Source of the DNA: Acutalibacteraceae bacterium
GTDB taxonomy: Bacteria; Bacillota; Clostridia; Oscillospirales; Acutalibacteraceae
Direction of reading: 5' to 3'
NCBI GenBank assembly: GCA_045533195.1
Contig: JAZSHI010000024.1
Coordinates: 448-64,447, forward strand
DNA: 64,000 nucleotides
Below, piece after piece: positions 2,592-53,691 of this stretch (positions are counted from its first letter, which is position 1; the number at the start of each line of letters is the position of its first letter). The notes beneath the pieces were generated by a model. The model ran no database searches and was not told where the DNA came from. It worked only from the letters and a program-made list of their open reading frames with translations. The position numbers and the translations under genes were made by a program.

Positions 2592-4298
2592 TTATATATA
2601 TTTCTTTATTTCCTTATTAAGCACTTCTCTGAACTTAATAAGTGTTAAATCATCATCGGGACAATAGGTAAACTTCATTTCGCCGAAGAAGTCTTCAATA
2701 AGCTTAATTGCCTTTTCTCTGCCTGCAAGCTCACTTAACTTCATAAGTGCTTCATAGTCTAATATTCCCTCGTAAAACACCTTCATTCTGGTACTGGTAA
2801 GAGCAGTTCCGTCATTATTTGGATAAGCCATAAATGAAGTGCCGGGATAGTTGCCGTAGTTACAGGGGAACACCTTAACGTCGCAAAGACCGTGGCTCAA
2901 TTTATCATAGTAATAGTTAAAGCCCCAATGCAAAAATCCTGTCATACCGAAATAGAACATCTGCACACCAACAATTCTGCAACGGGGTGCGGTGGTAGAA
3001 ATAAGACGGTTGGTAAAGCCTTCAACAAGGCTTTCACCGGTATAGTAAAGCCAACGGTTTTCTGCATTTTCAATAAATTTACCCATATCCTCGCTGTTTA
3101 CCGAAATAATGGGGGTATGGATTTTTGCCTCTTTATATACGTCGAAGCGGGAAATAGCATCGCCGTTTACATAGCCTTCAATTTCAGGAAGCACCGTATC
3201 AAGACATTTCTTATAGTTTTCAAGATGCTTGTCGCTGGGCTCGTCGGAAATATGGAAAAGAATGTTTTTGTTAACACCGGTTTTCTCGAGAATCGGCTTT
3301 AATGCTCTTAAATAGCTCTTTATAAAGAGGGTGTATTCTTCGCTCTGTGAATCGGTATTCCAACCGAAAAGCTGTTTATACTCGCCGTTTTCATAGCCCA
3401 TAATCTTGGGAGCAGCCTTTGCGCCCCACTGAGAATAAAGATGGCTGTGCTCAAAATGAGTCTGACCGGCTCTATGACAAACCTCTATAAAGCGTTCCAT
3501 AAGACTAAAATCAAATTCATAGCCGTCCTCGGTCTTTGTTACCTTTACAAGCTGGGCAGTCTTTCTCTCACAGCCTACAGAGGTATCAAGAGGAGGAGTG
3601 AATGCGGGAAGCAAAATCATATTCATTCCCGTATCGGCGGCAGCCTTTGCAAAGGACTCAATAATCTCAAAATGCTTATCAGAAAACATTTCAACGTTAT
3701 AAAGGTCTGCAAGACAGTCGCAATGGAACCAGTTAGTGTAAAGCAGTCTTTGTTCGCCGAGCTTTGCATCAATTACCTCAACCGTAAAGGTGCAGGTTGC
3801 CTTTATAACCTCAGCGCACGCGTCATAAAATCTTATGGTAAAGGTATGTTCACCGGGGGTAAGAGGATTGTTCTTTCCGCCGAGAGTAACCCATAGAGAC
3901 TGCCAAGAATAAGCGGCATTTAAAAGGTGATTTTCGCCCTTTTCAAAGAATATATTCTGCCACTGGAAGCCTTCGTTATTTATAATGCTATTGTTATTTC
4001 TCTTGTAAAGAATATCGGGATAAAGGCCGGGCTCGGTTCTGTCATAGTATTTATCGGGATTCATAGGTATAGCATTTATCAGGGGAACATATGCTACCTT
4101 GTATGTTTCATAATCGTTAATATCGGTTTCAACCTGGGCATACAAAAGCTCACTCGGTCTGTTTTCATCAATTCTATAGGCTATCTGAAAGGATGCCGGT
4201 TCGTCGGCAAAAACGGAAATTCTGTCGATTTCGCTTCCCTGCACTTTGTCAGGAAAAACCTTTGCAAGAGAAGAAACAATTTTTGTTTCAAGTTTCAT
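2592..4298 (-). CDS. DUF4091-like glycoside-hydrolase-like protein
   Basis: 568-aa ORF. N-terminus MKLETKIVSSLAKVFPDK and overall layout recalled as DUF4091 family. No search run. Confidence 0.6.
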   Translation of the reverse strand: MKLETKIVSSLAKVFPDKVQGSEIDRISVFADEPASFQIAYRIDENRPSELLYAQVETDINDYETYKVAYVPLINAIPMNPDKYYDRTEPGLYPDILYKRNNNSIINNEGFQWQNIFFEKGENHLLNAAYSWQSLWVTLGGKNNPLTPGEHTFTIRFYDACAEVIKATCTFTVEVIDAKLGEQRLLYTNWFHCDCLADLYNVEMFSDKHFEIIESFAKAAADTGMNMILLPAFTPPLDTSVGCERKTAQLVKVTKTEDGYEFDFSLMERFIEVCHRAGQTHFEHSHLYSQWGAKAAPKIMGYENGEYKQLFGWNTDSQSEEYTLFIKSYLRALKPILEKTGVNKNILFHISDEPSDKHLENYKKCLDTVLPEIEGYVNGDAISRFDVYKEAKIHTPIISVNSEDMGKFIENAENRWLYYTGESLVEGFTNRLISTTAPRCRIVGVQMFYFGMTGFLHWGFNYYYDKLSHGLCDVKVFPCNYGNYPGTSFMAYPNNDGTALTSTRMKVFYEGILDYEALMKLSELAGREKAIKLIEDFFGEMKFTYCPDDDLTLIKFREVLNKEIKKYI

Positions 4299-9784: not shown

Positions 9785-11293
9785 TTACTCACTTATATTT
9801 ATTATAAATCTGAAGGAAACTCTGCGGGAAGCCGCCATATCTACCTTTCCGTCTTTATCTTTAATAGGTTTGCTGTTGGAATATCCCACAGCTTCAAGTG
9901 TTGCAGCAAGTTTTTCATCAATGCTTACACAGTATTTTTTAACGTTGTCTGCTCTCTGTTTAGAGAAAGGCATACCTTCATCATAAGAAACACCGGAAAC
10001 GGGGGCAACGTGACCTTCTACCAAAGTCTTGGCTACAAAGCCCTCGTATTTTTCGTTAAATATAACAGAGGAATAAACGCAAGCAAATTTATCCAAAAAT
10101 GCCTTGCCTTTATCGGTAAGCACAGCGGAGTCACCGCCGAAAAGCACCGAGGAATCTAGGGCGAGTTCGCCGGTTTTCGCATCAACCGAAACAGAAATGC
10201 CTTCTTTTTCAAAGGCGCTGACAAGGTCATCCATAAGATTTTCTTTTTTCTTAAATATGGCTTCTATCTGAGCGTCGCTTAAAGCGTCAAGTGTTCCCGT
10301 CTGGTCTTCTACCACATAGTCGGAAAGAGAACCTCTTATTCTGTCGCTGTAGCTATCGTTATAGTAATAGGTGTTTTGGCCGTCGGTAAGGACAATTCCG
10401 CCATCACCGCAGTAAAAATAAAGATACTGATAGGTTTTTGTTCCCTTTTCCCACGGTACTGTAAAGGTAAACAGACCGTCTTCGGTAAGCTCTGCAATAC
10501 CGTCGTAAACCTGTTCGCCGTCAACGCCCTCAAAGTACATTCTTGACATATCGTCATCGGGGGAATATCTAAAGGTGATATTATCAATGCCGTCTAAGGC
10601 TTCGCTGTTTTTAGAAAGATAAGCATTAATATATAAATAGTCTTCTTCGCTGTGTGGGTCAAGTCCGCACATAAGGTCAACACTTGTATTCGAATTGGTG
10701 AGAGTAAGATGTCTTCCGTTAAAGGCAAAGGTATATTCAAGTGTTCCTTCGTTAAAGGCATATTCTATAGTATTATCTTCTTCATCGACTTCGAATTTAT
10801 CAAGAGGCTTTAATATAAGCTTGTTGTCCTCAACTGTATAGGCGCAAAGCATTGTATCAAGATTTATACTGCTTTCGTATTTTCGCATAAAGTAAACGCG
10901 CAACCAGTAATATCCCTTTACGTTATGAACCATATGGTTAAGGGTGTTTTTTCCTGCATCTATTCGCATAGGAACGGCGGAAATCTCTATTTCCTCTCCC
11001 ATATGGGTAAATTTTATGTAATTTGTTTCGTTACCGAATTTTTCTTCGGCTTCATCTCCACCTAAAAGACTATGTGTGCCGAAAAACATTTCTTCACTAT
11101 AGTCAAGCTTTGCGTATATATCCTGAGCATTAAGCTTTACTTCGGGAACACCCATAGGAACGGTGTTAACGGTAGAACTGCTTCCCTTAAAAATAAATCC
11201 GTTTTCGGTTTTATTATTGTTGCCCTTACCACCGCAGGCGCAAAGACTAAAAAGCATAAGTAAACATAAAAGTACGGCTATAATCTTTTTCAT
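9785..11293 (-). CDS. lipoprotein with C-terminal OmpA/MotB-like domain
   Basis: Lipobox LFSLCAC-GG. C-terminus has OmpA-like features (VEGHVAP..., FSKQRADNVKKY, SRRVSFRFI). Confidence 0.7.
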   Translation of the reverse strand: MKKIIAVLLCLLMLFSLCACGGKGNNNKTENGFIFKGSSSTVNTVPMGVPEVKLNAQDIYAKLDYSEEMFFGTHSLLGGDEAEEKFGNETNYIKFTHMGEEIEISAVPMRIDAGKNTLNHMVHNVKGYYWLRVYFMRKYESSINLDTMLCAYTVEDNKLILKPLDKFEVDEEDNTIEYAFNEGTLEYTFAFNGRHLTLTNSNTSVDLMCGLDPHSEEDYLYINAYLSKNSEALDGIDNITFRYSPDDDMSRMYFEGVDGEQVYDGIAELTEDGLFTFTVPWEKGTKTYQYLYFYCGDGGIVLTDGQNTYYYNDSYSDRIRGSLSDYVVEDQTGTLDALSDAQIEAIFKKKENLMDDLVSAFEKEGISVSVDAKTGELALDSSVLFGGDSAVLTDKGKAFLDKFACVYSSVIFNEKYEGFVAKTLVEGHVAPVSGVSYDEGMPFSKQRADNVKKYCVSIDEKLAATLEAVGYSNSKPIKDKDGKVDMAASRRVSFRFIINISE

Positions 11294-33347: not shown

Positions 33348-33424
33348 GGCGATATAGCTCAGTTGGCTAGAGCATGCGGTTCATACCCGCAGTGTCGTAG
33401 GTTCAAGTCCCACTATCGCCACCA
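33348..33424 (+). tRNA. tRNA-Met (CAT), elongator-like
   Basis: Cloverleaf folded by hand. Acceptor GGCGATA/TATCGCC and anticodon loop TTCATAC. One A-C mismatch in the T stem. CCA is encoded. Confidence 0.85.
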
Positions 33425-33428
33425 ATAC

Positions 33429-33504
33429 GGCCCGGTGGTCAAGAGGCCTAAGACACCGCCCTTTCACGGCGGTAACACGAGTTCGAATCTCGTCCGGGTC
33501 ACCA
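33429..33504 (+). tRNA. tRNA-Glu (TTC)
   Basis: Near-identical to the B. subtilis tRNA-Glu as I recall it. Anticodon loop CTTTCAC. CCA is encoded. Confidence 0.9.
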
Positions 33505-34223: not shown

Positions 34224-34248
34224 CACACGCCTTCGGGCGTGTTTTTTT
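34224..34248 (+). terminator. rho-independent terminator
   Basis: CACACGCC-TTCG-GGCGTGT followed by T7. Confidence 0.75.
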
Positions 34249-35455
34249 ACTTCCCTATATAAACCTCGTCTTCGCCGATTAGAGTGCCTTCAAGGTCGTA
34301 AAGTTTAACATAGGCGTAGCCTGTTTCGGCATAGGCGGGGGTTTTAAACCATACCCACGTACAGCCTTCGCTGCCCGACTTCCAATTTTTTCCGAAATCC
34401 CCCTTTTGAACACTGCCGCCTGGGAAAACTATTTCATATTTTACAGTAGTGGTAGCATTTGGTGCGCCGCCCGAAAGAGTAACGTGAAAATAAACGGTAT
34501 CAAAACGGGATATAACGGCGCTATCGGTGGTTTTATCCTCTTTACTGTTATTTATAATACATTTGGCAGACCAAGAGTAAAGGCTTTTGTGAATTGCCTT
34601 TGATTCCTCATAATTTACGCTTACTAATTCCTTTAAGTATTCAAAGGTGGTCAAGTCCTCCGCATTTTGATGCCCTTTTACATAGGCAAACATTGACTGT
34701 TGTTTTAAATTAAGGCTATCCTCATAATCTGAAATTTCTTCAAAAATTTTAACCGCTTCGGTATATTTTCCTGCCTTGTGATAAGACTTTGCTTTGTTAT
34801 AATTTGACAGAACAAGCTGCTCGTTGCTGTCCTTATAATCGGCAAGTGAAGAAAAAATATTTACCGCCGCTTCCCACTTTTCGCCCTTTATCGCAATAAG
34901 TCCTAATTGATAATTACATTCCTTTATATTTTTTCCTGCTTCTTTATAATTACCAAGGGCATTGAAATTCTCCTTTGCCCTTTCCCACTCTGCTTTTTCC
35001 ATAAGTTTAAGGGCATCTTTATATAAACATTCTTTTTTAAGTCCTAAAGAATCGTGATATTCCCCCAGCTCATCAAAGAAAATATATGCTTCCCCGTATT
35101 TTTCATCACTAAAAAGCCTTAGCGCAACGTCGTATTTGGTTCTAAAAATTCTGTCACTACTGTCCTTATAGTCACCAAGGTCTTCAAATATCTCAATTGC
35201 CTTTTCATAATCTCCGTTTTTTATGTGACCAAGAGCTTTATTATATCTTAACTGCGGAAGAAGAATAACAACAAAAAGAATCGATAAGGCAACAAGCAAA
35301 ACAGCGGTTATGCATAATGCTATAACCGTTTTTCTTTTTTTCTTTTTTGCATTTTTAATTGCCAGTTCCTTAACCTCTTTAAGCTCTTCCTCAGCATTAT
35401 CATATGCATCCTGCCAGAACCTATCGGTATCGTTAATCTGAAATGAAGGCTTCAC
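34247..35455 (-). CDS. membrane-anchored protein with five 37-aa TPR-like 'LGDYKDS' repeats
   Basis: One TM helix, five repeats ending in GDYKDS, GEYHDS, GNYKEA, ADYKDS and SDYEDS, and a C-terminal beta-rich domain. Confidence 0.7.
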   Translation of the reverse strand: MKPSFQINDTDRFWQDAYDNAEEELKEVKELAIKNAKKKKRKTVIALCITAVLLVALSILFVVILLPQLRYNKALGHIKNGDYEKAIEIFEDLGDYKDSSDRIFRTKYDVALRLFSDEKYGEAYIFFDELGEYHDSLGLKKECLYKDALKLMEKAEWERAKENFNALGNYKEAGKNIKECNYQLGLIAIKGEKWEAAVNIFSSLADYKDSNEQLVLSNYNKAKSYHKAGKYTEAVKIFEEISDYEDSLNLKQQSMFAYVKGHQNAEDLTTFEYLKELVSVNYEESKAIHKSLYSWSAKCIINNSKEDKTTDSAVISRFDTVYFHVTLSGGAPNATTTVKYEIVFPGGSVQKGDFGKNWKSGSEGCTWVWFKTPAYAETGYAYVKLYDLEGTLIGEDEVYIGK

Positions 35456-35681: not shown

Positions 35682-35963
35682 TTAATAAAGTCGTCCGTAA
35701 TTCTTTTTTAATTCTTCTATTTTTTCTTTATTCTGTTTTATGAATTCCTCTGCATTTTCCTCACTATAAAAAGAGTATTTATAACCGCAAACACCGCAGA
35801 CGTATTCATAACTTTTAATTTGATAGGCATCGCAGATAGGACAAATTATGGTGTTGTCAAATCTTGAAAGAGGGTTTTTATATTGCACAAGATTTATATA
35901 TCTGTCGCCAATACTGTAAACACCATTTTTATCGGGGTGGCAAATAAAAACCAGAGATTCCAT
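35682..35963 (-). CDS. small zinc-ribbon-like hypothetical protein
   Basis: 93 aa with CPICD...CGVCG. AAAGGAG RBS lies 5 nt upstream of the ATG. Confidence 0.6.
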   Translation of the reverse strand: MESLVFICHPDKNGVYSIGDRYINLVQYKNPLSRFDNTIICPICDAYQIKSYEYVCGVCGYKYSFYSEENAEEFIKQNKEKIEELKKNYGRLY

Positions 35964-35980
35964 AATAACTCCTTTATAAT

Positions 35981-36222
35981 AAAAAAGTGCGGCAACCGAA
36001 GTTACCGCACCGAAAAACGCAAACTCCGATTGTCGCCAAACAAATTACAAGTAATGAGGATTTACACACACAATAGCTTGTAGGAATTTGCGGTTTTGCA
36101 AAATTTACAAAAATATTGTATGTGTATAAAAGGGTATAATACCCCCATAAAAACTGTAATCCTCCTAAAATATGCAATTTGTTTGGCGTATTTAGTATAT
36201 CACAGAAAAAAACAAAATACAA
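35981..36222 (-). ncRNA. candidate structured leader/sRNA: promoter, ~155-nt imperfect hairpin, terminator
   Basis: Minus-strand TTGTAT-N17-TATACT (36194..36222). Perfect 13-bp arms at 36176..36188 and 36034..36046. Terminator GTGCGGYAAC stem plus T6 at 35981..36010. Confidence 0.4.
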
Positions 36223-42268: not shown

Positions 42269-42345
42269 TGGCGCGCTGTAAGAGATTCGAACTCCTGGCC
42301 TTTTGGTCCGTAGCCAAACGCTCTATCCAGCTGAGCTAACAGCGC
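42269..42345 (-). tRNA. tRNA-Arg (ACG)
   Basis: Reverse complement reads GCGCTGTTAGCTCAGCTGGATAGAGCGTTTGGCTACGGACCAAAAGG...ACAGCGCGCCA. Anticodon loop is CTACGGA. Confidence 0.9.
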
Positions 42346-44730: not shown

Positions 44731-44952
44731 TTATGCTTTCATTATACTCATGAAAATCCCAAAAACAATGGTTACAACAATAATAATCAGACACAGCTTT
44801 GCAATTTTTAGCAAAAAAGCAATACCCATTATCCAGGATAAAAGCAACGCTCCTATGGCAAGTATTGCACAGCCAAGAACGATTTTTCCCGTTGCGCACT
44901 TTGCCCAAAGGATTATCAGACCTGCTATAACCAATAAAATCACCCAAAACAT
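44731..44952 (-). CDS. small hydrophobic membrane protein
   Basis: 73 aa with three predicted TM segments. AAGGGGA RBS upstream. Confidence 0.5.
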   Translation of the reverse strand: MFWVILLVIAGLIILWAKCATGKIVLGCAILAIGALLLSWIMGIAFLLKIAKLCLIIIVVTIVFGIFMSIMKA

Positions 44953-44993: not shown

Positions 44994-45041
44994 AAAAAAA
45001 TCCTCCTACAAGTGTATATGTTGATTTTACACTTATAGGAG
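44994..45041 (-). terminator. strong rho-independent terminator ending the WYL-led operon
   Basis: 16-bp stem TCCTCCTATAAGTGTA / TACACTTGTAGGAGGA with one mismatch, then T7 on the minus strand. Confidence 0.85.
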
Positions 45042-45096
45042 GACAAAGGTATGTCTGCCTTAATTATTTAGTTGTCGGCATATTTAATGATTAAAA

Positions 45097-45255
45097 TTAT
45101 TTATTTTCAATTTTCCCCAAGCCGTCGCATTTTGGGCAGTCGATTACCCCATCACCGTGACAATAGTCACATTCTTCTCCGTCTTCATATCCGAAGCCGT
45201 CACAATGAGGACAATCTAATTCACCGCTGCCGCCGCATTTTGAACAATCAACCAT
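45097..45255 (-). CDS. 52-aa DnaJ-type zinc-finger mini-protein, (CxxCxGxG)x4 (not in ORF track)
   Basis: My translation is MVDCSKCGGSGELDCPHCDGFGYEDGEECDYCHGDGVIDCPKCDGLGKIENK. AAGGAG RBS lies 7 nt upstream of the ATG. Confidence 0.8.
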   Translation of the reverse strand: MVDCSKCGGSGELDCPHCDGFGYEDGEECDYCHGDGVIDCPKCDGLGKIENK

Positions 45256-45275
45256 TTTGTGACTCCTTTATAAAA

Positions 45276-45449
45276 TTAATATTTTCTGTTTATAACCCAA
45301 GAATGCGGTTGAGGTCTGCCCAATTTGTTTTTAGGTCTGCGAGAACAACTGCCGGGTTGAGGTCTTCCGAAGTTACTGAGCTGTGTGCTTCTGGCTCCAC
45401 ACCATCTGCACATATACTCAACCTTCATAATCTTTTTTCCTGTAGGCAT
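45276..45449 (-). CDS. 57-aa basic CxxC mini-protein with duplicated GRPQP motif
   Basis: ORF 45276..45458. GAAAGGA abuts the first ATG and is better spaced (9 nt) for the ATG at 45449. Contains CRWCG, FGRPQPGSC and LGRPQPHSW. Confidence 0.6.
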   Translation of the reverse strand: MPTGKKIMKVEYMCRWCGARSTQLSNFGRPQPGSCSRRPKNKLGRPQPHSWVINRKY

Positions 45450-45492
45450 TAAAACCATTCCTTTCTGTTAATATTTTATTGCTTTTTAATTT

Positions 45493-48174
45493 TTAAATAA
45501 GTAAATCTGCAATTATTTTTTCTGCTGATAAGTCGGTTAGTTGTACTTTGTCAACAAATTCTGCAATACCCGAAATTTCACCTACGCAATATTTATATTG
45601 ATGACTTACTGTAAATTCGTTTTCCAAATTAAGCTTAATCTTTATGTTTGATTCAACCGATACCTTTTCGGGAGTTTCCAGCAGCGAACTCACAAGGGCT
45701 TTATCCATCTGTGTTTCAATAGTTTTCTGTCCTAAATTTAAGCTGATTTTCCCTTTTGTCTCGTCATACTCTCCGTAGCTTATTGCGTTTACGGGGATTT
45801 CGAACAGATTAATTAAAGATTCCTTGTTAATTTGTTTTAAGGCTTCGATTTTTTTCTCTATTTCCTTGGCGAGTAAGAAACTTTCCTCAACCTGTTTTTC
45901 TTTTTCTTTCTTCATAGTATCTGCTGTTTCATTTGCAAATTCGCATACATCAGAAACAGCTTTTTTAAACTCCGAAACACCATTTTTTGCCTTTTTCTCG
46001 AAATGCTCGGGAACATCACGAAGGAACTCGTTCATAGTTTCCGACGCTGAAAGAATACATTCGCACCTTTTTGCACACTCTGCATCAATTTTCTGCAGTA
46101 TGTCGGGAAGTCTTTCTTCCAATTCCTTTGCAAAAACAAGTTGCTTTTCTTTTTTATCATTTAATAGAGCAGTAACATTATCAAATAAGTTTTGGTCTAA
46201 TAACGTGGCAAAAAGCAGAGCGCATCTCTCATACAGATTTTTTACTGCAATTTCTTTTGCAATATCCTCATAAACATTCTGAGTCTCACATATTTTCTTG
46301 CTTTCTTTTTCTACATCATATACAATTTCCAATTTTTCGTTAATGATAAGACTGTTTTGGGTGTTATTATAAAACTTAAATATAAATTCTTTGAAGGCAT
46401 CGTAATCCAACTGCATTGCTGCAAGAAAAACCGCGCCAAAACCGTCGGAAGTTAAAGAATTAAAACAGTCATTTTTGTTTTTTAAGGTTTCTAAAACAGG
46501 GATACTTGTAAATCTTGCGGCGATTAACGGAAGATTTAAGCCGTCTGCATCTATGAATTCTGCGTATTGGTTACTCTGGGTAACCTCTTTAGTATCACCG
46601 TTGATTGCGTAGGTCTTAAGCAATGAGGAAATGGCATTAATCATCCGGTTGTACTCTTCTTCAAGGTGTTCTATGCTACTGCTTACCTCATCAGAATTTT
46701 TATACTTTTCCTCGTCTTTTTTAAGAGAATCCAGCAAAGAACGGCTTTCTATATACTTGAATTCCAAAAGAGCAAGATTGATTTCTGCACAGCGAACATC
46801 AAAGGAGTCCTTGACTTTTTTAGCATCTTCAATTAATTTATGCGCTGTATCGAATTTACCTACTTGCATATAATATACAGCTTTACTGTAGAGATGTAAG
46901 CAATATTCGTCAAGATGCTCATTTTTGTGTTTTTCCACCGTATCCTTCAAGCAATAGCCTAAGGCTTCATCACTTGCAATTTTTGTGTAAAATTGGCTAA
47001 GCTCATAAATTTGACTGTATTCGTATTGCTTAAGCAAAAGCTCAACGAGAATTTTAAACGCCTCTGTTTTTTCTTTTACGAGCTCATCAGGAGCGCCGGA
47101 AATGGCGGCATTTACTGTGTCAGACGCACTTTCTAAAGAGTCATGCTTCTCAAACATTTTCGCCATATTTATGCTTTTTTCAATCCATTCTCTTTGTTCC
47201 TTCAAATAACGCTGATATAGAGTTTCTCTTAGTTTTTCAACAGTTTTCAACCGATTTTCTTTTTCAGAAGAACTAATTAGGTTATGCTCATATAATTCGT
47301 CTATGGTTGCTTTGGCTAAATCAGGCTTCTCGGCTTTCAGCTCAATCTCAAGCTTTAAATTGTAATATTCTTCTTTTACGTCATCTGAAAAATCATCTCT
47401 TATTTCCTGATTTTGCAGTAAACCAAGAGCACCCTTTAAATTGCTTTCTTTTTCAGCCTTTCTCGCCTTTTCAACGGCTGCTTTTAAATCAGCAAGGTCT
47501 TTTGCATAGGTTTCACGGAAATTTGATATAGCTTCTTTTGCAGTCTCGATAAATTCCTTTGCATTGTCGAAGGAAGCGTAAGAAGCTTCATACATATTTA
47601 AAAGCTCCTCTGCTTTATCCATATTTTCAAGATATATGTAGGCTTGAATATAAAGAGCGCGGTAAACCATTAAATCTTCAAAAGAGGTATTCCTTTCGTA
47701 TCGCTTTTGTTTATCCAGTAATTCAAGGTAATTCTCAATATCGCTTTCGTTTGAAAGTGCTTCTCGGAGTTTATTTATGTCGATAGGATCACCAAGTTTA
47801 TGCAAATTATATATTAATTTACCCACACCTATTGCGTAGTTCGGAGATTTTCCGTTGACTGTAACGTTATCACCCTTTAAAGACACGTTGCTTTTTAAAA
47901 GTTGGTCATAGGTTATACTCTCAATCACTCCAAATGACCGCCCGTATATTTTCTTGTCTGTAAAACAGGTGCCATCTTTTGCAGAGCCAAAAAGGGTAGA
48001 GTCATACAAAGCATACACCGTTTCTGTATTGGGAATATTCATATAATATTTGGCGTTTTGCAGTTTCTTTTCGGGGATTGTATTAAAATAATAGCTTATA
48101 CCGCTATACTCTTTGAGCACTTGTTTAACATCATCAATCATAGTGCCTGTTGATTGTTTATTTGTTTCAGACAT
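45493..48174 (-). CDS. 893-aa protein: putative N-terminal membrane-proximal module plus long helical/TPR-like region, no enzymatic motif seen
   Basis: AAGGAGGG RBS 5 nt upstream. N-terminal IPEKKLQNAKYYM...VYALYDSTLFGSAKDGTCFTDKKIY. The remainder is rich in K, E and L. Confidence 0.85.
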   Translation of the reverse strand: MSETNKQSTGTMIDDVKQVLKEYSGISYYFNTIPEKKLQNAKYYMNIPNTETVYALYDSTLFGSAKDGTCFTDKKIYGRSFGVIESITYDQLLKSNVSLKGDNVTVNGKSPNYAIGVGKLIYNLHKLGDPIDINKLREALSNESDIENYLELLDKQKRYERNTSFEDLMVYRALYIQAYIYLENMDKAEELLNMYEASYASFDNAKEFIETAKEAISNFRETYAKDLADLKAAVEKARKAEKESNLKGALGLLQNQEIRDDFSDDVKEEYYNLKLEIELKAEKPDLAKATIDELYEHNLISSSEKENRLKTVEKLRETLYQRYLKEQREWIEKSINMAKMFEKHDSLESASDTVNAAISGAPDELVKEKTEAFKILVELLLKQYEYSQIYELSQFYTKIASDEALGYCLKDTVEKHKNEHLDEYCLHLYSKAVYYMQVGKFDTAHKLIEDAKKVKDSFDVRCAEINLALLEFKYIESRSLLDSLKKDEEKYKNSDEVSSSIEHLEEEYNRMINAISSLLKTYAINGDTKEVTQSNQYAEFIDADGLNLPLIAARFTSIPVLETLKNKNDCFNSLTSDGFGAVFLAAMQLDYDAFKEFIFKFYNNTQNSLIINEKLEIVYDVEKESKKICETQNVYEDIAKEIAVKNLYERCALLFATLLDQNLFDNVTALLNDKKEKQLVFAKELEERLPDILQKIDAECAKRCECILSASETMNEFLRDVPEHFEKKAKNGVSEFKKAVSDVCEFANETADTMKKEKEKQVEESFLLAKEIEKKIEALKQINKESLINLFEIPVNAISYGEYDETKGKISLNLGQKTIETQMDKALVSSLLETPEKVSVESNIKIKLNLENEFTVSHQYKYCVGEISGIAEFVDKVQLTDLSAEKIIADLLI

Positions 48175-48185
48175 TTTTACCCTCC

Positions 48186-49184
48186 TTACACAGCCTCTAG
48201 ACGTGCAATATACTCTTGTCCGCGCATAAGACTTTCCATAGATTTTTCTTCCAATTCGCCTTCCTCATTAAGAAGGGATGTATCTATTATGGCTTTTATG
48301 GTAATTGCAAGTTGAACACAAGCGTAAATGGATTTCCTTTCTTCATCACTATATTTGCTGTAATCCTCGCCGGATGTATTGATAATATCACACATATTAT
48401 TAACAGCGCATACAAAGAATTGATTCAGTATTTGTAAAATTCCGTTTAACTGACTTGCTCTTACCATTATTCCGTTAAGCACAATGCAGGTACTAAGCAC
48501 TTGCTCGTTAAGTGTCTGCGCCCGTAAATATTCGGATTCGGCATCATTAAATTTTTTCTTTGCCTGACTAGCAAAAATAGAGCCTGCAAGAGAAATTACC
48601 GAACCAACATTTAATCCTTTAAGCACCGCGGCTCCGCCTGCCATACCCAAACCTCCGGCAGCCTTTGCGCCTCCGCCCAATAAAGCTAATGCGTGTTTAG
48701 ATGCCGCCGCACCGGCTAAGCCGCTATGGGTAACGGTACGCAAAACAACGGCTTGTGTACCTTTTGAAACGAGACTTCCGATAGCAATTGAAGCGGCTCC
48801 GCCCATTGCGAGATCTTTTGCTGCAATGGCGGCTTCTTTTATTTCAAGAATTTCTTGTTTGTGTTCGGTGAAATGTTTTAATTCATTAATTCCTTCGGTT
48901 TCCTTGAAATTGACATTTTTGATTCTTTCAAAATTGGTCACAAAATCACTCATACTTTCTGCAAGTATATGGATTTTGGTGTCGGCAAACTTTTCCAGCC
49001 TGTCCATTGCTCTGTTATTGGCATTTTCCATATTTTGTTTTGCGGTATCAGAAAGCTGTTCTGCCTGATTTTTTAGCTCTTTGGCAGTTGAAAGATCGTT
49101 AGCTCCGTCAACACCCTTCTTGACACCATGGGCAGCAGAAGCAATTGATATTGCGCCGAGTATTAATGGAATAAATATTGGCAT
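48186..49184 (-). CDS. 332-aa helical protein with N-terminal hydrophobic helix and central Gly/Ala-rich amphipathic segments
   Basis: AAGGGGG RBS. N-terminus MPIFIPLILGAISIASAAHG. Central AMGGAASIAIGSLV...GLAGAAASKHALALLGGGAKAAGGLGMAGGAAVLKGLNVGSVISLAGSIFA. Confidence 0.85.
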   Translation of the reverse strand: MPIFIPLILGAISIASAAHGVKKGVDGANDLSTAKELKNQAEQLSDTAKQNMENANNRAMDRLEKFADTKIHILAESMSDFVTNFERIKNVNFKETEGINELKHFTEHKQEILEIKEAAIAAKDLAMGGAASIAIGSLVSKGTQAVVLRTVTHSGLAGAAASKHALALLGGGAKAAGGLGMAGGAAVLKGLNVGSVISLAGSIFASQAKKKFNDAESEYLRAQTLNEQVLSTCIVLNGIMVRASQLNGILQILNQFFVCAVNNMCDIINTSGEDYSKYSDEERKSIYACVQLAITIKAIIDTSLLNEEGELEEKSMESLMRGQEYIARLEAV

Positions 49185-49199
49185 AATATAACCCCCTTA

Positions 49200-50549
49200 T
49201 TAAAATTCTAATACTAAAGAATCGTCCATCATAAATTCGTCGAATTCTTCAAAGTTTTTAAACTGAATGGTTCCTCCAACTTCAGCGGTTATGGTATTTA
49301 ATGCCGAAGTTAATAAATCTATATTATTGGTATCTAAGGCTGTTGCTAAGGAAATAAGACTTTCTTTGAAAACCTTTTGACGTTTTTCCGACTCAATAAA
49401 GGTGCTGTTAAGAAGAAATTCTCTTTCCTCTTTTATAACATTTATAGCCTCTTGAGAGAGAACTCTGATTTCATTCAGACGTTGGGATGAGACCATTTCC
49501 TCCTCAAAAACATTCATAGCATACTTATATAATTCGCTGTAAACTGCTGTTACGATTGTGGAAGATGCCGCTTGCGTTAAAGCCGCCGCTACCCCCTTCA
49601 TACCCATTGAAAGAGAAATAGACGTACCGATGGAAGTACCCCACGCCTGTGACACCTGAAACAAACCGTCCTGTCCGATTTTAAGGAAAAACTGTGTATC
49701 TGTGATTTCACCGTTAATATATTCTTTAAAATGCTCCTTGACGTTTTCTGCCGTTGCTGTCAGCTCATTTAAGTCAAGATATTTTGAAATTTTCAGCTTT
49801 TCGCAGGCTTTGACTATGTAGTCATTAATTGCTTCTTTAGATAATTCACCGACTTTTTGAGTGGCTGCCTCGGTTAAAGACATTTCTCCGTTAATTAAAT
49901 TTTTGGCAGTATCAATAGCCTCGCCTGAAATACCGAATTTTTCGGTTGCTTTTGAAACAACACCGTCAATAGCCTTATGCTTTATTTCGTCCACCGTTTC
50001 AGTAACAGAATTTTCGATTATCTCTTGAGCAGACATACTTCCGTCTAAAAAACCGTGTAGATTTTCAATTCCCTTGTTTAAAAGCGTTTGTGTCGAATCG
50101 GTTGCAAATAAATCCGCCTTTTTAACGGCATCAGTCTTATATTTTTTACTTTCAAGTTTTTTGTGTTTTTGTGCGAAAGAGTCGGAAACATTTTTCTGTA
50201 TTCTGTCGCACAACATTTCCGGTAAAACTTCTTTGGTTTTTGACAGCACTGCGTTTTTTGAAATTTCTAATGCTTCACTTATATTTGCATCTTCATTCTC
50301 AATACCTTCCAGTCCGCTTGAAAGACCTGCATATACAATAGAGTATATACCGCTTTTTATATCTGAGGATTTACTGTTTTCTTGGTTACTGTTAAATGTA
50401 TCATAAAGTTCGTCAACCTTTTGGTGTACTGCGGATGCAGTCGCTTCCTTTAAGGATGATTTTTCTTCAACCATTTGGGCGCCGCCGTTTATTAATACAC
50501 AAATAACCTCGGATAAAGCATCTGTATCTATTTTTGAATTAATTTTCAT
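49200..50549 (-). CDS. 449-aa helical protein with one Gly/Ser/Ala-rich hydrophobic hairpin
   Basis: GAGGTGA RBS. Hairpin region AWGTSIGTSISLSMGMKGVAAALTQAASSTIVTAVY is flanked by long predicted helices. Confidence 0.85.
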   Translation of the reverse strand: MKINSKIDTDALSEVICVLINGGAQMVEEKSSLKEATASAVHQKVDELYDTFNSNQENSKSSDIKSGIYSIVYAGLSSGLEGIENEDANISEALEISKNAVLSKTKEVLPEMLCDRIQKNVSDSFAQKHKKLESKKYKTDAVKKADLFATDSTQTLLNKGIENLHGFLDGSMSAQEIIENSVTETVDEIKHKAIDGVVSKATEKFGISGEAIDTAKNLINGEMSLTEAATQKVGELSKEAINDYIVKACEKLKISKYLDLNELTATAENVKEHFKEYINGEITDTQFFLKIGQDGLFQVSQAWGTSIGTSISLSMGMKGVAAALTQAASSTIVTAVYSELYKYAMNVFEEEMVSSQRLNEIRVLSQEAINVIKEEREFLLNSTFIESEKRQKVFKESLISLATALDTNNIDLLTSALNTITAEVGGTIQFKNFEEFDEFMMDDSLVLEF

Positions 50550-50577: not shown

Positions 50578-51552
50578 TTACTGATTTGAATAATTATTTA
50601 TAATCTTTTCTGCTTCCTGACGAATGCTTTGAGCAAATTCCTTTGGGCTTATTACCGTTACCCATGCGCCCTGACTTAAAATCCACATTTTAATGCCGTC
50701 GCCATAGGTTTCGGCTTCTATTAAGTATTTGTTTGCTCCTGTTCGTTCAATGACTTTGGCGGTGGGAAGCTTATCGAGAACTGCCTGAACCGACGGGCCG
50801 GAAAATTCAAATCTTATTTTACGAAGTTTGCCGGGCCACATAAAGAGACTTCTTTTGCGAAGTAATCCTTCGTCGAAGTCGCGGAAATCATCATCGCAAA
50901 ATTTCTTTCGGTGTTCGATTATATTCTTTATTCTGTCAAGGCGGAAATAATACGGTTTTTCCGTATTGCCCTCACACACAAAGGCGATTAAGTAAAAATA
51001 ATAATCGGTGAACATAACCGAGGCAGGCCGCAGACGGTGTGTAACCCATTTCCTATCCATTCGGTAGTATTCAATTGATATTTCCTTTTTCTCGGTAATG
51101 CAATTAGTAATCTGCCATAGTCTATCCTGCACACTTGCACAATCGTGCTTAACCTCGGGGTAGTGATACAGCTCTTTTCGGATAAGCTCTGCAAGATTTG
51201 TCTTATTGTCACCCGTAGTAAAGCGCTTGAGCTTATTGATAAGCGTTAAAAGCTCATCCCTTGAAAAAGCGCGCGCCCCTATTATAACCTCCACAAGAGC
51301 AAAAAGCTCTTTATTGCTTAAAAATTCATCCATAAAAAGATGATAACATTTATTTTTATGTGAGTATTCCAACTCTGTGTTACCCACAAGTTCACGATTA
51401 TCAGAGAGAAACGCCTTTAAATCGGCAATGTTTCGGCTAACGCTTTTGGTAGATACGCCGTATTCGTCAGCGAGTTTCGAGACCGATATGTCTTCACCTC
51501 GAAGAGCACGGAAGAAAATCTCCAAAATTCTGTACTGCTTTGTGTTTTCCAT
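50578..51552 (-). CDS. HTH-WYL-WCX transcriptional regulator (BrxR/CapW/PafBC-like architecture)
   Basis: ORF 50578..51585, likely ATG at 51552. N-terminal HTH (YRILEIFF...VSKLADEYGVSTKSVSRNI) and WYL-like core ISIEYYRMDRKWVTHRLRPASVMFTDYYFYLIAF. Confidence 0.8.
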   Translation of the reverse strand: MENTKQYRILEIFFRALRGEDISVSKLADEYGVSTKSVSRNIADLKAFLSDNRELVGNTELEYSHKNKCYHLFMDEFLSNKELFALVEVIIGARAFSRDELLTLINKLKRFTTGDNKTNLAELIRKELYHYPEVKHDCASVQDRLWQITNCITEKKEISIEYYRMDRKWVTHRLRPASVMFTDYYFYLIAFVCEGNTEKPYYFRLDRIKNIIEHRKKFCDDDFRDFDEGLLRKRSLFMWPGKLRKIRFEFSGPSVQAVLDKLPTAKVIERTGANKYLIEAETYGDGIKMWILSQGAWVTVISPKEFAQSIRQEAEKIINNYSNQ

Positions 51553-51600
51553 TTTTTTAATCCGCCTTTGTAACTTTAAAATCATTTTATAAAATTACTC

Positions 51601-51616
51601 GGACATACTGTTGTCC
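51601..51616. promoter_or_regulatory. palindrome GGACA-N6-TGTCC between the leader terminator and the WYL-gene RBS
   Basis: Perfect 5-bp arms. The same GGACA/TGTCC pentamers form the outer ends of the leader hairpin (51695..51803). Confidence 0.4.
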
Positions 51617-51629
51617 CATAAAAAAACTA

Positions 51630-51663
51630 AAATAAAAAATGCGCAGCCGAAGAGGCTACGCAC
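51630..51663 (-). terminator. intrinsic terminator inside the 5' leader of the WYL-led operon
   Basis: Minus-strand GCGTAGCC-TCTTC-GGCTGCGC followed by ATTTTTTATTTT. Confidence 0.7.
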
Positions 51664-51806
51664 GAAAATCATACCCTCTGCTGTTTAAGGTTGCTGGACA
51701 CTTAAATTAAACTTTGTTGCAAAGTCAGCCAGCGGGTATGGTTTTACCATAACCGGTTTTGCAACAAAAGATTAAAATAAACCGATTTTAACTTAAATGT
51801 CCAACA
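51664..51806 (-). ncRNA. candidate structured leader RNA (three-tier ~110-nt hairpin)
   Basis: Arms 51790..51803 and 51695..51708 (GGACATTTAAGTT / AATTTAAGTGTCC). Inner arms TTGTTGCAAA / TTTGCAACAA. Apex GGTTATGG-TAAAA-CCATACC. Confidence 0.45.
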
Positions 51807-51811
51807 TAGTG

Positions 51812-51840
51812 ATTATAACATAAACACTTTTATTTGTAAA
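51812..51840 (-). promoter_or_regulatory. sigma-A type promoter (TTTACA-N17-TATAAT)
   Basis: Minus-strand hexamers at 51835..51840 and 51812..51817. The predicted start site falls at the 5' arm of the leader hairpin. Confidence 0.65.
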
Positions 51841-52086: not shown

Positions 52087-53691
52087 ATGAAAAACTTAGA
52101 TTTAAGCAAGTATGGCATTACCGGTGTAAAAGAAATAATCCACAACCCTTCTTATGAAGAGCTTTTCGCCGCTGAAACCGATCCTGCTCTCGAAGGCTTT
52201 GAAAAAGGTCAGGTAACCGAGCTTGGCGCGGTTAACGTTATGACCGGTATCTACACAGGTCGTTCCCCCAAAGATAAGTTCATTGTTATGGATAAAAACT
52301 CTAAGGACACTGTATGGTGGACTTCTGATGAATTCAAAAACGACAACCATCCCTGCAGCGAAGAAACCTGGGCAGTATTAAAGGATATTGCAACTAAGCA
52401 GCTTAGTGAAAAGAAGCTTTACGTTGTTGACGTATTCTGCGGTGCAAACGAAGACTCAAGAATGTCTATCCGTTTCATTATGGAGGTTGCTTGGCAGGCT
52501 CACTTTGTAAAGAATATGTTTATTAATCCTACCGCTGAAGAGCTTGAGAAATTCGAACCCGATTTCGTTTGCTACAATGCTTCCAAAGCAAAGATTGAAA
52601 ACTTCAAGGAATTAGGTCTTAACTCTGAGACCGCTTCTGTATTCAACATTACTTCCAGAGAACAGGTTATTCTTAACACCTGGTACGGCGGTGAAATGAA
52701 GAAGGGTATGTTCTCTATGATGAACTACTACTTACCTCTTAACGGTATGGCTTCTATGCACTGCTCCGCTAACACCGATATGAACGGCGAAAACACCGCT
52801 CTCTTTTTCGGTCTTTCCGGTACAGGTAAAACTACCCTTTCTACCGATCCTAAGCGTCTTCTTATCGGTGATGATGAGCACGGCTGGGACGACAAGGGCG
52901 TATTTAACTTCGAAGGCGGCTGCTATGCTAAGGTTATTAACCTTGACAAAGAAAGCGAGCCTGACATCTATGCTGCTATCCGCAGAAACGCTCTTCTTGA
53001 GAACGTAACCGTTGATGAAAACGGCGTTTGCGATTTCGCTGACGATTCCGTTACCGAGAACACCCGTGTTTCTTACCCCATTGACCATATCGAAAAGATC
53101 GTTCGTCCTGTTTCTGCAGCACCCGACGCTAAGAACGTAATCTTCCTTTCTGCCGATGCTTTCGGTGTACTTCCTCCTGTTTCTATTCTTACTCCCGAAC
53201 AGGCACAGTACTACTTCCTCTCCGGCTTTACCTCTAAGCTTGCTGGTACCGAGCGCGGAATCACCGAGCCTACTCCTACCTTCTCTGCCTGTTTCGGTCA
53301 GGCTTTCTTAGAGCTTCACCCCACCAAGTATGCTGAAGAGCTTGTTAAGAAGATGGAAAAGAGTGGCGCTAAGGCTTATCTCGTAAATACCGGTTGGAAC
53401 GGCAGCGGTAAGCGTATCTCCATTAAGGATACCCGCGGTATCATTGATGCTATCCTTGACGGTTCTATCCTTAAGGCTGACACCAAGACCATTCCCTACT
53501 TCAATCTTGAAGTTCCCACCGCACTTCCCGGTGTTGACAGCGGTATCCTTGATCCCAGAGACACCTATGGCGATGCAGCCGAGTGGGATACAAAGGCAAA
53601 AGACCTCGCTTCCCGTTTTGTTAAGAACTTTGATAAGTACACCGGCAATGATGCAGGTAAAGCACTTGTTGAAGCAGGTCCCGAACTTTAA
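52087..53691 (+). CDS. pckA: phosphoenolpyruvate carboxykinase (ATP)
   Basis: ORF 52024..53691. ATG at 52087 follows AGGAAAGAGG. Kinase-1a motif GLSGTGKTT and typical PckA sequence. Confidence 0.93.

Follow-up and report, generated by a model that had tools for sequence, protein, structure and literature searches.

We examined a 64,000-nt stretch of DNA (the window) from an Acutalibacteraceae bacterium (contig JAZSHI010000024.1), in which an island at approximately 44.7-51.84 kb is flanked by a MATE transporter gene on one side and by pckA on the other. The segment considered here, 51601-51840, stands at the pckA side of this island, upstream of a minus-strand gene for a WYL regulator of 324 aa (50578-51552) with winged helix-turn-helix (wHTH), WYL, and WCX domains. 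An initial annotation had described the segment as a promoter, a structured RNA, and a terminator; this description was borne out, the arrangement is kept in relatives, and all of the sequence features listed were found where they had been placed, on the minus strand. On balance, and by a modest degree of confidence over doubt, we read 51601-51840 as two adjacent units that would each be autonomous, namely a predicted RNA gene and the WYL regulator's own putative promoter.

The RNA transcription unit is complete at 51632-51840 (minus strand), with a promoter followed by a structured RNA and an intrinsic terminator. The promoter (51812-51840) consists, as first annotated, of TTTACA (51835-51840) and TATAAT (51812-51817) across a 17-nt spacer, agrees with the consensus at 11 of 12 positions, and also has a TGn-extended -10. 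The RNA, which belongs to a sequence type that we call type A, measures about 175 nt (51632-51806), counted from its predicted start through the U-run of the terminator. Its outer stem, P1, begins 6-7 nt past the -10 and pairs UGUUGGACAUUUAAGUU (51806-51790), the start of which is the predicted 5' end of the transcript, with AAUUUAAGUGUCCAGCA (51708-51692), next to which is a conserved AAC linker. The three-tier hairpin of the initial annotation is thus present, but its outer stem is longer than had been described (17 bp). The middle stem is UUGUUGCAAA/UUUGCAACAA and the apex GGUUAUGG-UAAAA-CCAUACC; P2 and the apical hairpin together occupy 51714-51767, P2 being formed by 51758-51767 with 51714-51723 and enclosing a hairpin made of X (51747-51754), a UAAAA loop, and X' (51726-51745). 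A 191-nt stretch folds with a minimum free energy of -65.6 kcal/mol (z = -7.4), and not one of 200 shuffled versions was as stable. At the 3' end (51632-51663), 51654-51663 pairs with 51639-51648 ahead of a U-run, so that 51663-51639 forms a G+C-rich stem of 10 bp, 6 of them G-C, with TTTTTATTTT behind it; this confirms the strong intrinsic terminator proposed earlier, which is also kept in relatives.

Just before the terminator lies a tail segment, X'' (CAGCAGAGGGUAUGAUUUU; 51665-51683), which resembles X, the 5' half of the hairpin with which it competes, and which pairs with X' either in place of the apical hairpin or as a pseudoknot. The duplex of AAAACCAUACCCGCUGGCUG with CAGCAGAGGGUAUGAUUUU is predicted at -19.9 kcal/mol, compared with -11.6 +/- 2.8 for shuffled tails. 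When tail-interior pairing was evaluated in 15 representatives with shuffled tails as the control, 12 of them gave z-scores of -1.9 to -4.8. The partners also change jointly between sequence types, as in CAUACCC/GGGUAUG, UCUCU/AGAGA, UCUCC/GGAGA, UCUCG/CGAGA, CCCCUUU/AAAGGGG, CGCAAAUUCC/GGAGUUUGCG, and CGCAGACCUC/GGGGUUUGCG. The early suggestion that the 3' half of the apex can pair with the downstream tail has therefore gained in strength, as this pairing is conserved and covaries between types. The X':X'' helix ends 0-4 nt before the terminator stem.

To place the segment in a comparative setting, we used 80 orthologous WYL loci (59-83% protein identity) from Oscillospiraceae, Lachnospiraceae, Fusobacterium, Synergistes, Megasphaera, and other groups. 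Type A RNAs were detected by blastn and a covariance model in 12 of these loci, and also in every additional contig that was reached through close WYL homologs; in one locus (L096, 658-3057), a type A RNA (1839-2014) lies between tandem WYL paralogs. The covariance model, built from 13 sequences, gave 23 type A matches and scored the window RNA at 185 bits. Over 19 distinct type A sequences, 94% of cells were paired, as opposed to 35-45% when the partners were slid, and for P1 the figure was 98%. One P1 pair covaries between G-C and A-U with a 10/9 split, a pair in a small side hairpin is found in three Watson-Crick versions, and the terminator contains four covarying pairs; altogether, seven pairs were altered on both sides, compared with 3.8 in shuffles. 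The 5'-arm GGACA is found only in the window, as the other 18 of the 19 sequences have GGAUA, where P1 forms a conserved U.G wobble. Moreover, the three arm mismatches of the window are compatible with G.U pairing only on the transcribed strand, and this one-sided tolerance of the wobble argues that arm pairing acts at the RNA level.

A key result of the comparison is that the window RNA is a member of what we predict to be a structured RNA family absent from Rfam 15. Relatives occur at about 35 other places, 18 of which are distinct close relatives, and the hosts are gut Clostridia as well as phages of these bacteria. Several sequence types can be told apart, which share one architecture and one 3' module. 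About a quarter of the 80 WYL loci have a family RNA upstream, including type B in four loci and type C in two, at the same position before the WYL gene. Types B and C are unlike type A in sequence, with unrelated outer stems, and follow the same plan from promoter to terminator: P1 sets in where transcription begins; next come inner stems and an apical hairpin, whose loop is often GGUAAAA, and then the 3' strand of P1, an RAC linker, an interior-pairing tail, a U-run, and a GUGCG...CGCAC terminator. P1, the inner stems, and X':X'' are hence kept across types with differing sequences, and P1 measures 12-18 bp in all 15 representatives, in which its sequences are unrelated. The type A model also matches types B and C, more weakly (E 1e-4 to 0.1) and over the full length in the correct place. 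Conversely, a 3'-module profile (nhmmer) built without type A recovered every type A end, with no other match in the 1.1 Mb searched, and one member from a phage scaffold (L102) is intermediate in sequence, combining a type B-like loop with a type C 3' module. Promoter placement is equally regular: in 29 of 29 family members compared, the -35 and TGnTAtAAT boxes lie in the same register relative to P1, with spacers that differ in sequence and with the -10 ending 6 nt ahead of the outer-stem G. A GUGCG...CGCA-type terminator (-14 to -22 kcal/mol, 6-7 U) is present at every RNA-bearing locus. In two distant WYL loci (59-60% identity) from Synergistaceae and Clostridia, a GGCGCG/GGUGCG-type terminator stands upstream of the operator (L077, approximately 4140-4172; L080, approximately 136-193), with E-values of 0.4-0.5 to the 3'-module profile; these terminators may represent further, more diverged RNA types.

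Members of the family also occur away from WYL genes, the first of which were found with the type A model and three more by pattern scans and blastn. The window itself holds a second copy of about 208 nt (35980-36187, minus strand; promoter 36194-36222), which matches the type A model with E = 0.002 and the 3'-module profile with E = 2e-17 and has a near-identical 3' module, GCGACAAUCGGAGUUUGCGUUUUUCGGUGCG. It is followed, 17 nt past the U-run, by a 93-aa Cys-rich open reading frame (ORF; 35682-35963, minus strand) and then by a gene for a tetratricopeptide repeat (TPR) protein of 402 aa (34247-35455, minus strand). Elsewhere, the downstream gene encodes a 140-aa small membrane protein with a weak, sub-threshold SHOCT match (L034; RNA at 10003-10207, minus strand), a 95-aa membrane protein (L100, an IMG/VR viral contig), an EcoRI-family adenine methylase (L101, gut phage scaffold MT835503), a lipoprotein (L102, gut phage scaffold MT835845), or a BspA-type leucine-rich repeat surface protein (L081, a type A member on a metagenome contig). 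Across all seven independent contexts, the RNA is followed by a gene of the same orientation, which differs from one context to another, and in the six non-WYL contexts this gene starts 17-45 nt past the U-run with no second promoter evident.

Searches for a known counterpart were negative within their scope. The initial annotation had named no matching riboswitch class, and the Rfam 15 covariance-model scan agreed: at the gathering threshold, the window yielded tRNAs only, a permissive search on the element gave miRNA and small RNA models as its best matches (E 0.3 or worse), and nothing relevant was found on six other members or on the second window copy. No WYL- or defense-associated structured RNA was described in the literature searched. 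Among phages and plasmids, the type A element had no blastn match, while the second copy matched two unannotated gut-phage scaffolds and no plasmid; pattern scans with the type A core returned no viral contig and one metagenome contig, and those with the 3' module returned L100 alone among viral contigs.

Between the RNA unit and the WYL gene lies the perfect palindrome GGACA-N6-TGTCC (51601-51616) noted in the initial annotation, and we regard it as the putative operator of the regulator and the predicted site of the wHTH-WYL-WCX dimer. The order of palindrome, ribosome-binding site, and start codon also held, with the difference that the start is the ATG at 51552 and not at 51585, since MENTKQYR begins there as in the orthologs. 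With the pattern RGACA-N5-7-TGTCY, the dyad was found 46-88 nt upstream of the WYL ATG in about 68 of the 80 loci, with the consensus gGACA.aC.T.TGTCc. When 68 distinct regions upstream of WYL genes were anchored on the dyad, 58 had a TATAAT-like hexamer that starts exactly 11 nt past it; in the window it is TAAAAT (51584-51589, minus strand), without a -35 hexamer, and the hexamers located at -35 spacing are part of the palindrome and agree with TTGACA at three or fewer of six positions. Most loci with the conserved dyad have no RNA upstream, and an extended -10 that might mark a general upstream promoter in such RNA-less loci occurred in 11 of 48 on the sense strand and in 7 of 48 on the opposite one, so that a promoter of this kind was rejected as a general property. 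We propose that the palindrome and the -10 at 11 nt form a predicted autonomous WYL promoter and, because the pair is kept in mostly RNA-less loci, that the WYL gene is independent of the distal promoter. In the 64-kb window, RGACA-N6-TGTCY occurs exactly twice (0.13 expected), the second time at 45041-45056 with TAAAAT at 45024-45029, again 11 nt apart (45024-45056, minus strand). A ribosome-binding site and the gene for a 73-aa membrane protein (44731-44952, minus strand), the last gene of the island, come next, and this is probably a second WYL-controlled promoter; the recurrence supports the motif as an operator plus promoter. In nine loci (L012, L015, L016, L047, L048, L052-L054, and L058), the place of the RNA upstream of WYL is taken by a small XRE-type helix-turn-helix gene, which runs in the same direction as the WYL gene and in some cases has a terminator behind it.

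The WYL regulator belongs to a large family (2402 homologs at E <= 1e-10), and its HTH_11, WYL, and WCX domains all scored above the Pfam cut-offs. By phmmer, the protein had no match in the PDB, and a profile of its orthologs matched only PafC (E = 0.009). An AlphaFold (AF2) model of it (predicted local distance difference test score, pLDDT, 77), compared with the PDB by Foldseek, matched DriD (2e-13), PafBC (2e-11), CapW (1e-9), and BrxR (2e-9). According to published work (PMC13004042), DriD promoters lack a -35 hexamer, and their binding site covers that position at an unvarying distance from the -10; the same layout is seen here, with DriD and PafBC as the best structural matches. Unlike DriD and PafBC, the WYL regulator heads a mobile island with variable defense-like cargo, as BrxR and CapW do. 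BrxR and CapW share its domain architecture and bind palindromes at their own promoters (PMC9122601, PMC9122588), and the second site inside the island is comparable to the R-BOX1/R-BOX2 arrangement of BrxR (PMC9122601). However, the sites of BrxR are located past the -10 and those of CapW overlap it (PMC9122601, PMC9122588), whereas the window site lies upstream, the sequence similarity is remote, and no RNA partner was found for those systems in the literature searched.

What, then, might the RNA do? Its most likely role, at roughly even chances in our view, is that of a cis-acting, transcription-attenuating leader, a reading built on comparative sequence data. A strong sigma-70-type promoter would start the RNA at the first base of P1, a P1-enclosed domain of about 140 nt would fold with its inner stems and the X/X' hairpin with a GGUAAAA-type loop, and most polymerases would stop at the terminator after the X'' tail; a signal that shifts the balance of X:X' and X':X'' would then change read-through. 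Genes that start 17-45 nt past the U-run without an evident second promoter must be transcribed through the terminator, which favors the cis leader. Such a leader would resemble terminator-type riboswitches and attenuators in its order of promoter, P1-closed domain, terminator, ribosome-binding site, and gene, in its conserved, mutually exclusive pairing, and in being a family defined by structure over sequence. It would differ from them in that it has no Rfam match, its alternative helix abuts the terminator without a demonstrable overlap, its downstream genes have no common metabolic theme, and, in the window, a second, apparently autonomous promoter intervenes. A WYL dimer may sit at the -35 position, 11 bp upstream of the -10, as at DriD/PafBC promoters, with a second such site controlling the last island gene, and steric repression as with BrxR/CapW would be equally possible as WYL-dependent activation. 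The RNA unit could provide the regulator gene with a low level of attenuated, WYL-independent transcription and could shield the island from transcripts that enter from outside. Perhaps a self-activating, DriD-like promoter needs basal regulator, which leaky upstream termination would supply, but this is speculative. More specifically, and only tentatively, the RNAs may be cis-regulatory switches of a new class, whether riboswitches or attenuators that depend on a factor, which gate accessory and anti-phage genes (WYL-controlled defense islands, a phage methylase, and surface proteins) on an infection- or stress-related signal and provide the basal supply of regulator at WYL loci.

Several observations weigh against a cis-acting leader. 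Covariation within type A is modest over the 19 sequences, which can be attributed to their being about 82% identical. By eye, the X':X'' helix runs into the 5' arm of the terminator in 17 of 19 type A members, but extension into this arm gave -4.9 kcal/mol versus -3.6 for shuffled arms, and a classical antiterminator that sequesters the terminator 5' arm, convincing by eye, was given up when it failed this control. Given such strong terminators, the RNA may be no more than a self-contained small RNA, and a cis role is not required at the WYL loci, where the RNA is followed by an independent promoter. The attenuator or riboswitch considered in the initial annotation is therefore supported in part: six relatives are placed like leaders, but the WYL locus has its own intervening promoter and no antiterminator that withstands the control. 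It is accordingly possible, if rather unlikely, that the element acts as a trans-acting small RNA of about 170 nt, with other targets or a bound protein, such as the ssDNA/ssRNA-binding WYL domain, and that its adjacency to genes reflects linkage. The unit is complete with both ends base-paired, a terminator-overlapping switch is not demonstrable, relatives of the regulator have WYL domains that bind single-stranded nucleic acid (PMC11662680), and single-stranded DNA complexes of DriD and CapW are among the Foldseek matches. Linkage alone sits poorly with a co-oriented gene directly downstream in seven of seven contexts, six of them at 17-45 nt; the partner genes are unrelated and so offer no common trans target, and inspection revealed no conserved single-stranded seed complementary to the WYL mRNA. 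Nor did inspection point to a leader peptide, as the RNAs have no conserved short ORFs. HK022 put and EAR are structured RNAs located right after promoters of phage or accessory operons that contain terminators, and a processive antitermination cassette of this kind, in which the RNA modifies its own polymerase, so that transcripts from its promoter alone get past the adjacent and later terminators while other traffic is blocked, would account for a conserved fold and a strong terminator without an overlapping antiterminator, and would suit both the phage and mobile-element contexts and a downstream operon of at least 6 kb. We nevertheless consider such a cassette improbable. The likeness is one of placement, with no match in sequence or structure; the RNA has no similarity to the Rfam families searched, among which we take the EAR (epsC) motif to be, and the competition among X, X', and X'' would have no obvious role.

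The remaining alternatives concern the promoters and the DNA itself. The initial annotation made expression of the entire island depend on transcripts from the promoter at 51812-51840 that pass the terminator, and it is true that this promoter is far nearer to consensus than anything downstream and that family members elsewhere appear to work in this way. We think it very improbable that a single unit of this kind operates here, as the palindrome with its -10 at 11 nt is kept in WYL upstream regions that mostly have neither an RNA nor an upstream promoter and recurs before another gene at 45024-45056. Least probable of all, to the point of being hardly credible, is an element that acts as DNA, such as a WYL operator array, the ends of a miniature inverted-repeat transposable element (MITE), or the repeats of an invertible switch. 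The window arms do contain GGACA and TGTCC, and the downstream methylase, surface proteins, and defense genes are reminiscent of phase-variable sets, but the presence of GGACA at the four arm ends, which had been proposed as a protein-binding array, is a coincidence of the window sequence, and the operator array was rejected, given the GGAUA of other type A members, the unrelated arms of types B and C, and the strand-specific G.U compatibility of the mismatches. A MITE was excluded, as the core occurs once in the window (up to three mismatches allowed), the second copy is dissimilar, and each copy has its own promoter and terminator, and an inverton was rejected on the grounds that the promoter lies outside the repeats and the interior has one orientation in all 29 members.

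The genes around the island are chromosomal housekeeping genes and not prophage; pckA (52087-53691, plus strand), for an ATP-dependent phosphoenolpyruvate carboxykinase, diverges from the RNA promoter, and the minus-strand ORFs that overlie it are spurious. Downstream of the WYL gene, the variable cargo comprises three genes (449, 332, and 893 aa; 45493-50549, minus strand), which are possibly an uncharacterized defense system. The 332-aa protein (48186-49184, minus strand) has a match to the PADLOC defense candidate PDC-M09A (2.7e-15) and a weak one to LeoBC; the 449-aa and 893-aa proteins had no match in Pfam, PHROGs, NCBIfam, PADLOC, or PDB sequences, and none of four island proteins matched the PDB by sequence. 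This cargo is shared only by L003 and the near-identical L083-L092, and other WYL loci carry a dynamin-like GTPase with DUF87 and LHH/SUKH, or AAA ATPases. That the RNA is part of the cargo system was rejected, because the cargo differs between RNA-bearing loci; the RNA therefore goes with the regulator module and not with a particular effector. Past the 893-aa gene, two small ORFs of 60 aa and 52 aa (45097-45458, minus strand) probably belong to the island operon, the latter with four CxxC motifs (two of them CxxCxGxG) of a DnaJ-type zinc finger. There are three tRNA genes in the window, at 33348-33501 (plus strand) and 42272-42345 (minus strand), and the last, approximately 2.4 kb past the distal end of the island, may be the sign of a hotspot for integration.

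How defense islands stay silent yet inducible is an open question, for which WYL regulators are the best-studied handle. For the WYL family of gut Firmicutes, our comparison offers a testable promoter grammar, a dyad 11 bp from the -10 without a -35, which resembles the activator-type promoters of DriD rather than the repression by BrxR and CapW. Upstream of some of these regulators stands an RNA that is absent from Rfam 15 and that also precedes genes for a phage methylase, a surface protein, and membrane proteins. If this RNA is a switch, it would constitute a new orphan class of riboswitch or attenuator tied to phage-host conflict; or, if it is a small RNA, it would be a candidate partner for the nucleic acid-sensing WYL domain. 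Either way, the RNA alignment and coordinates provide a starting point for experiments.

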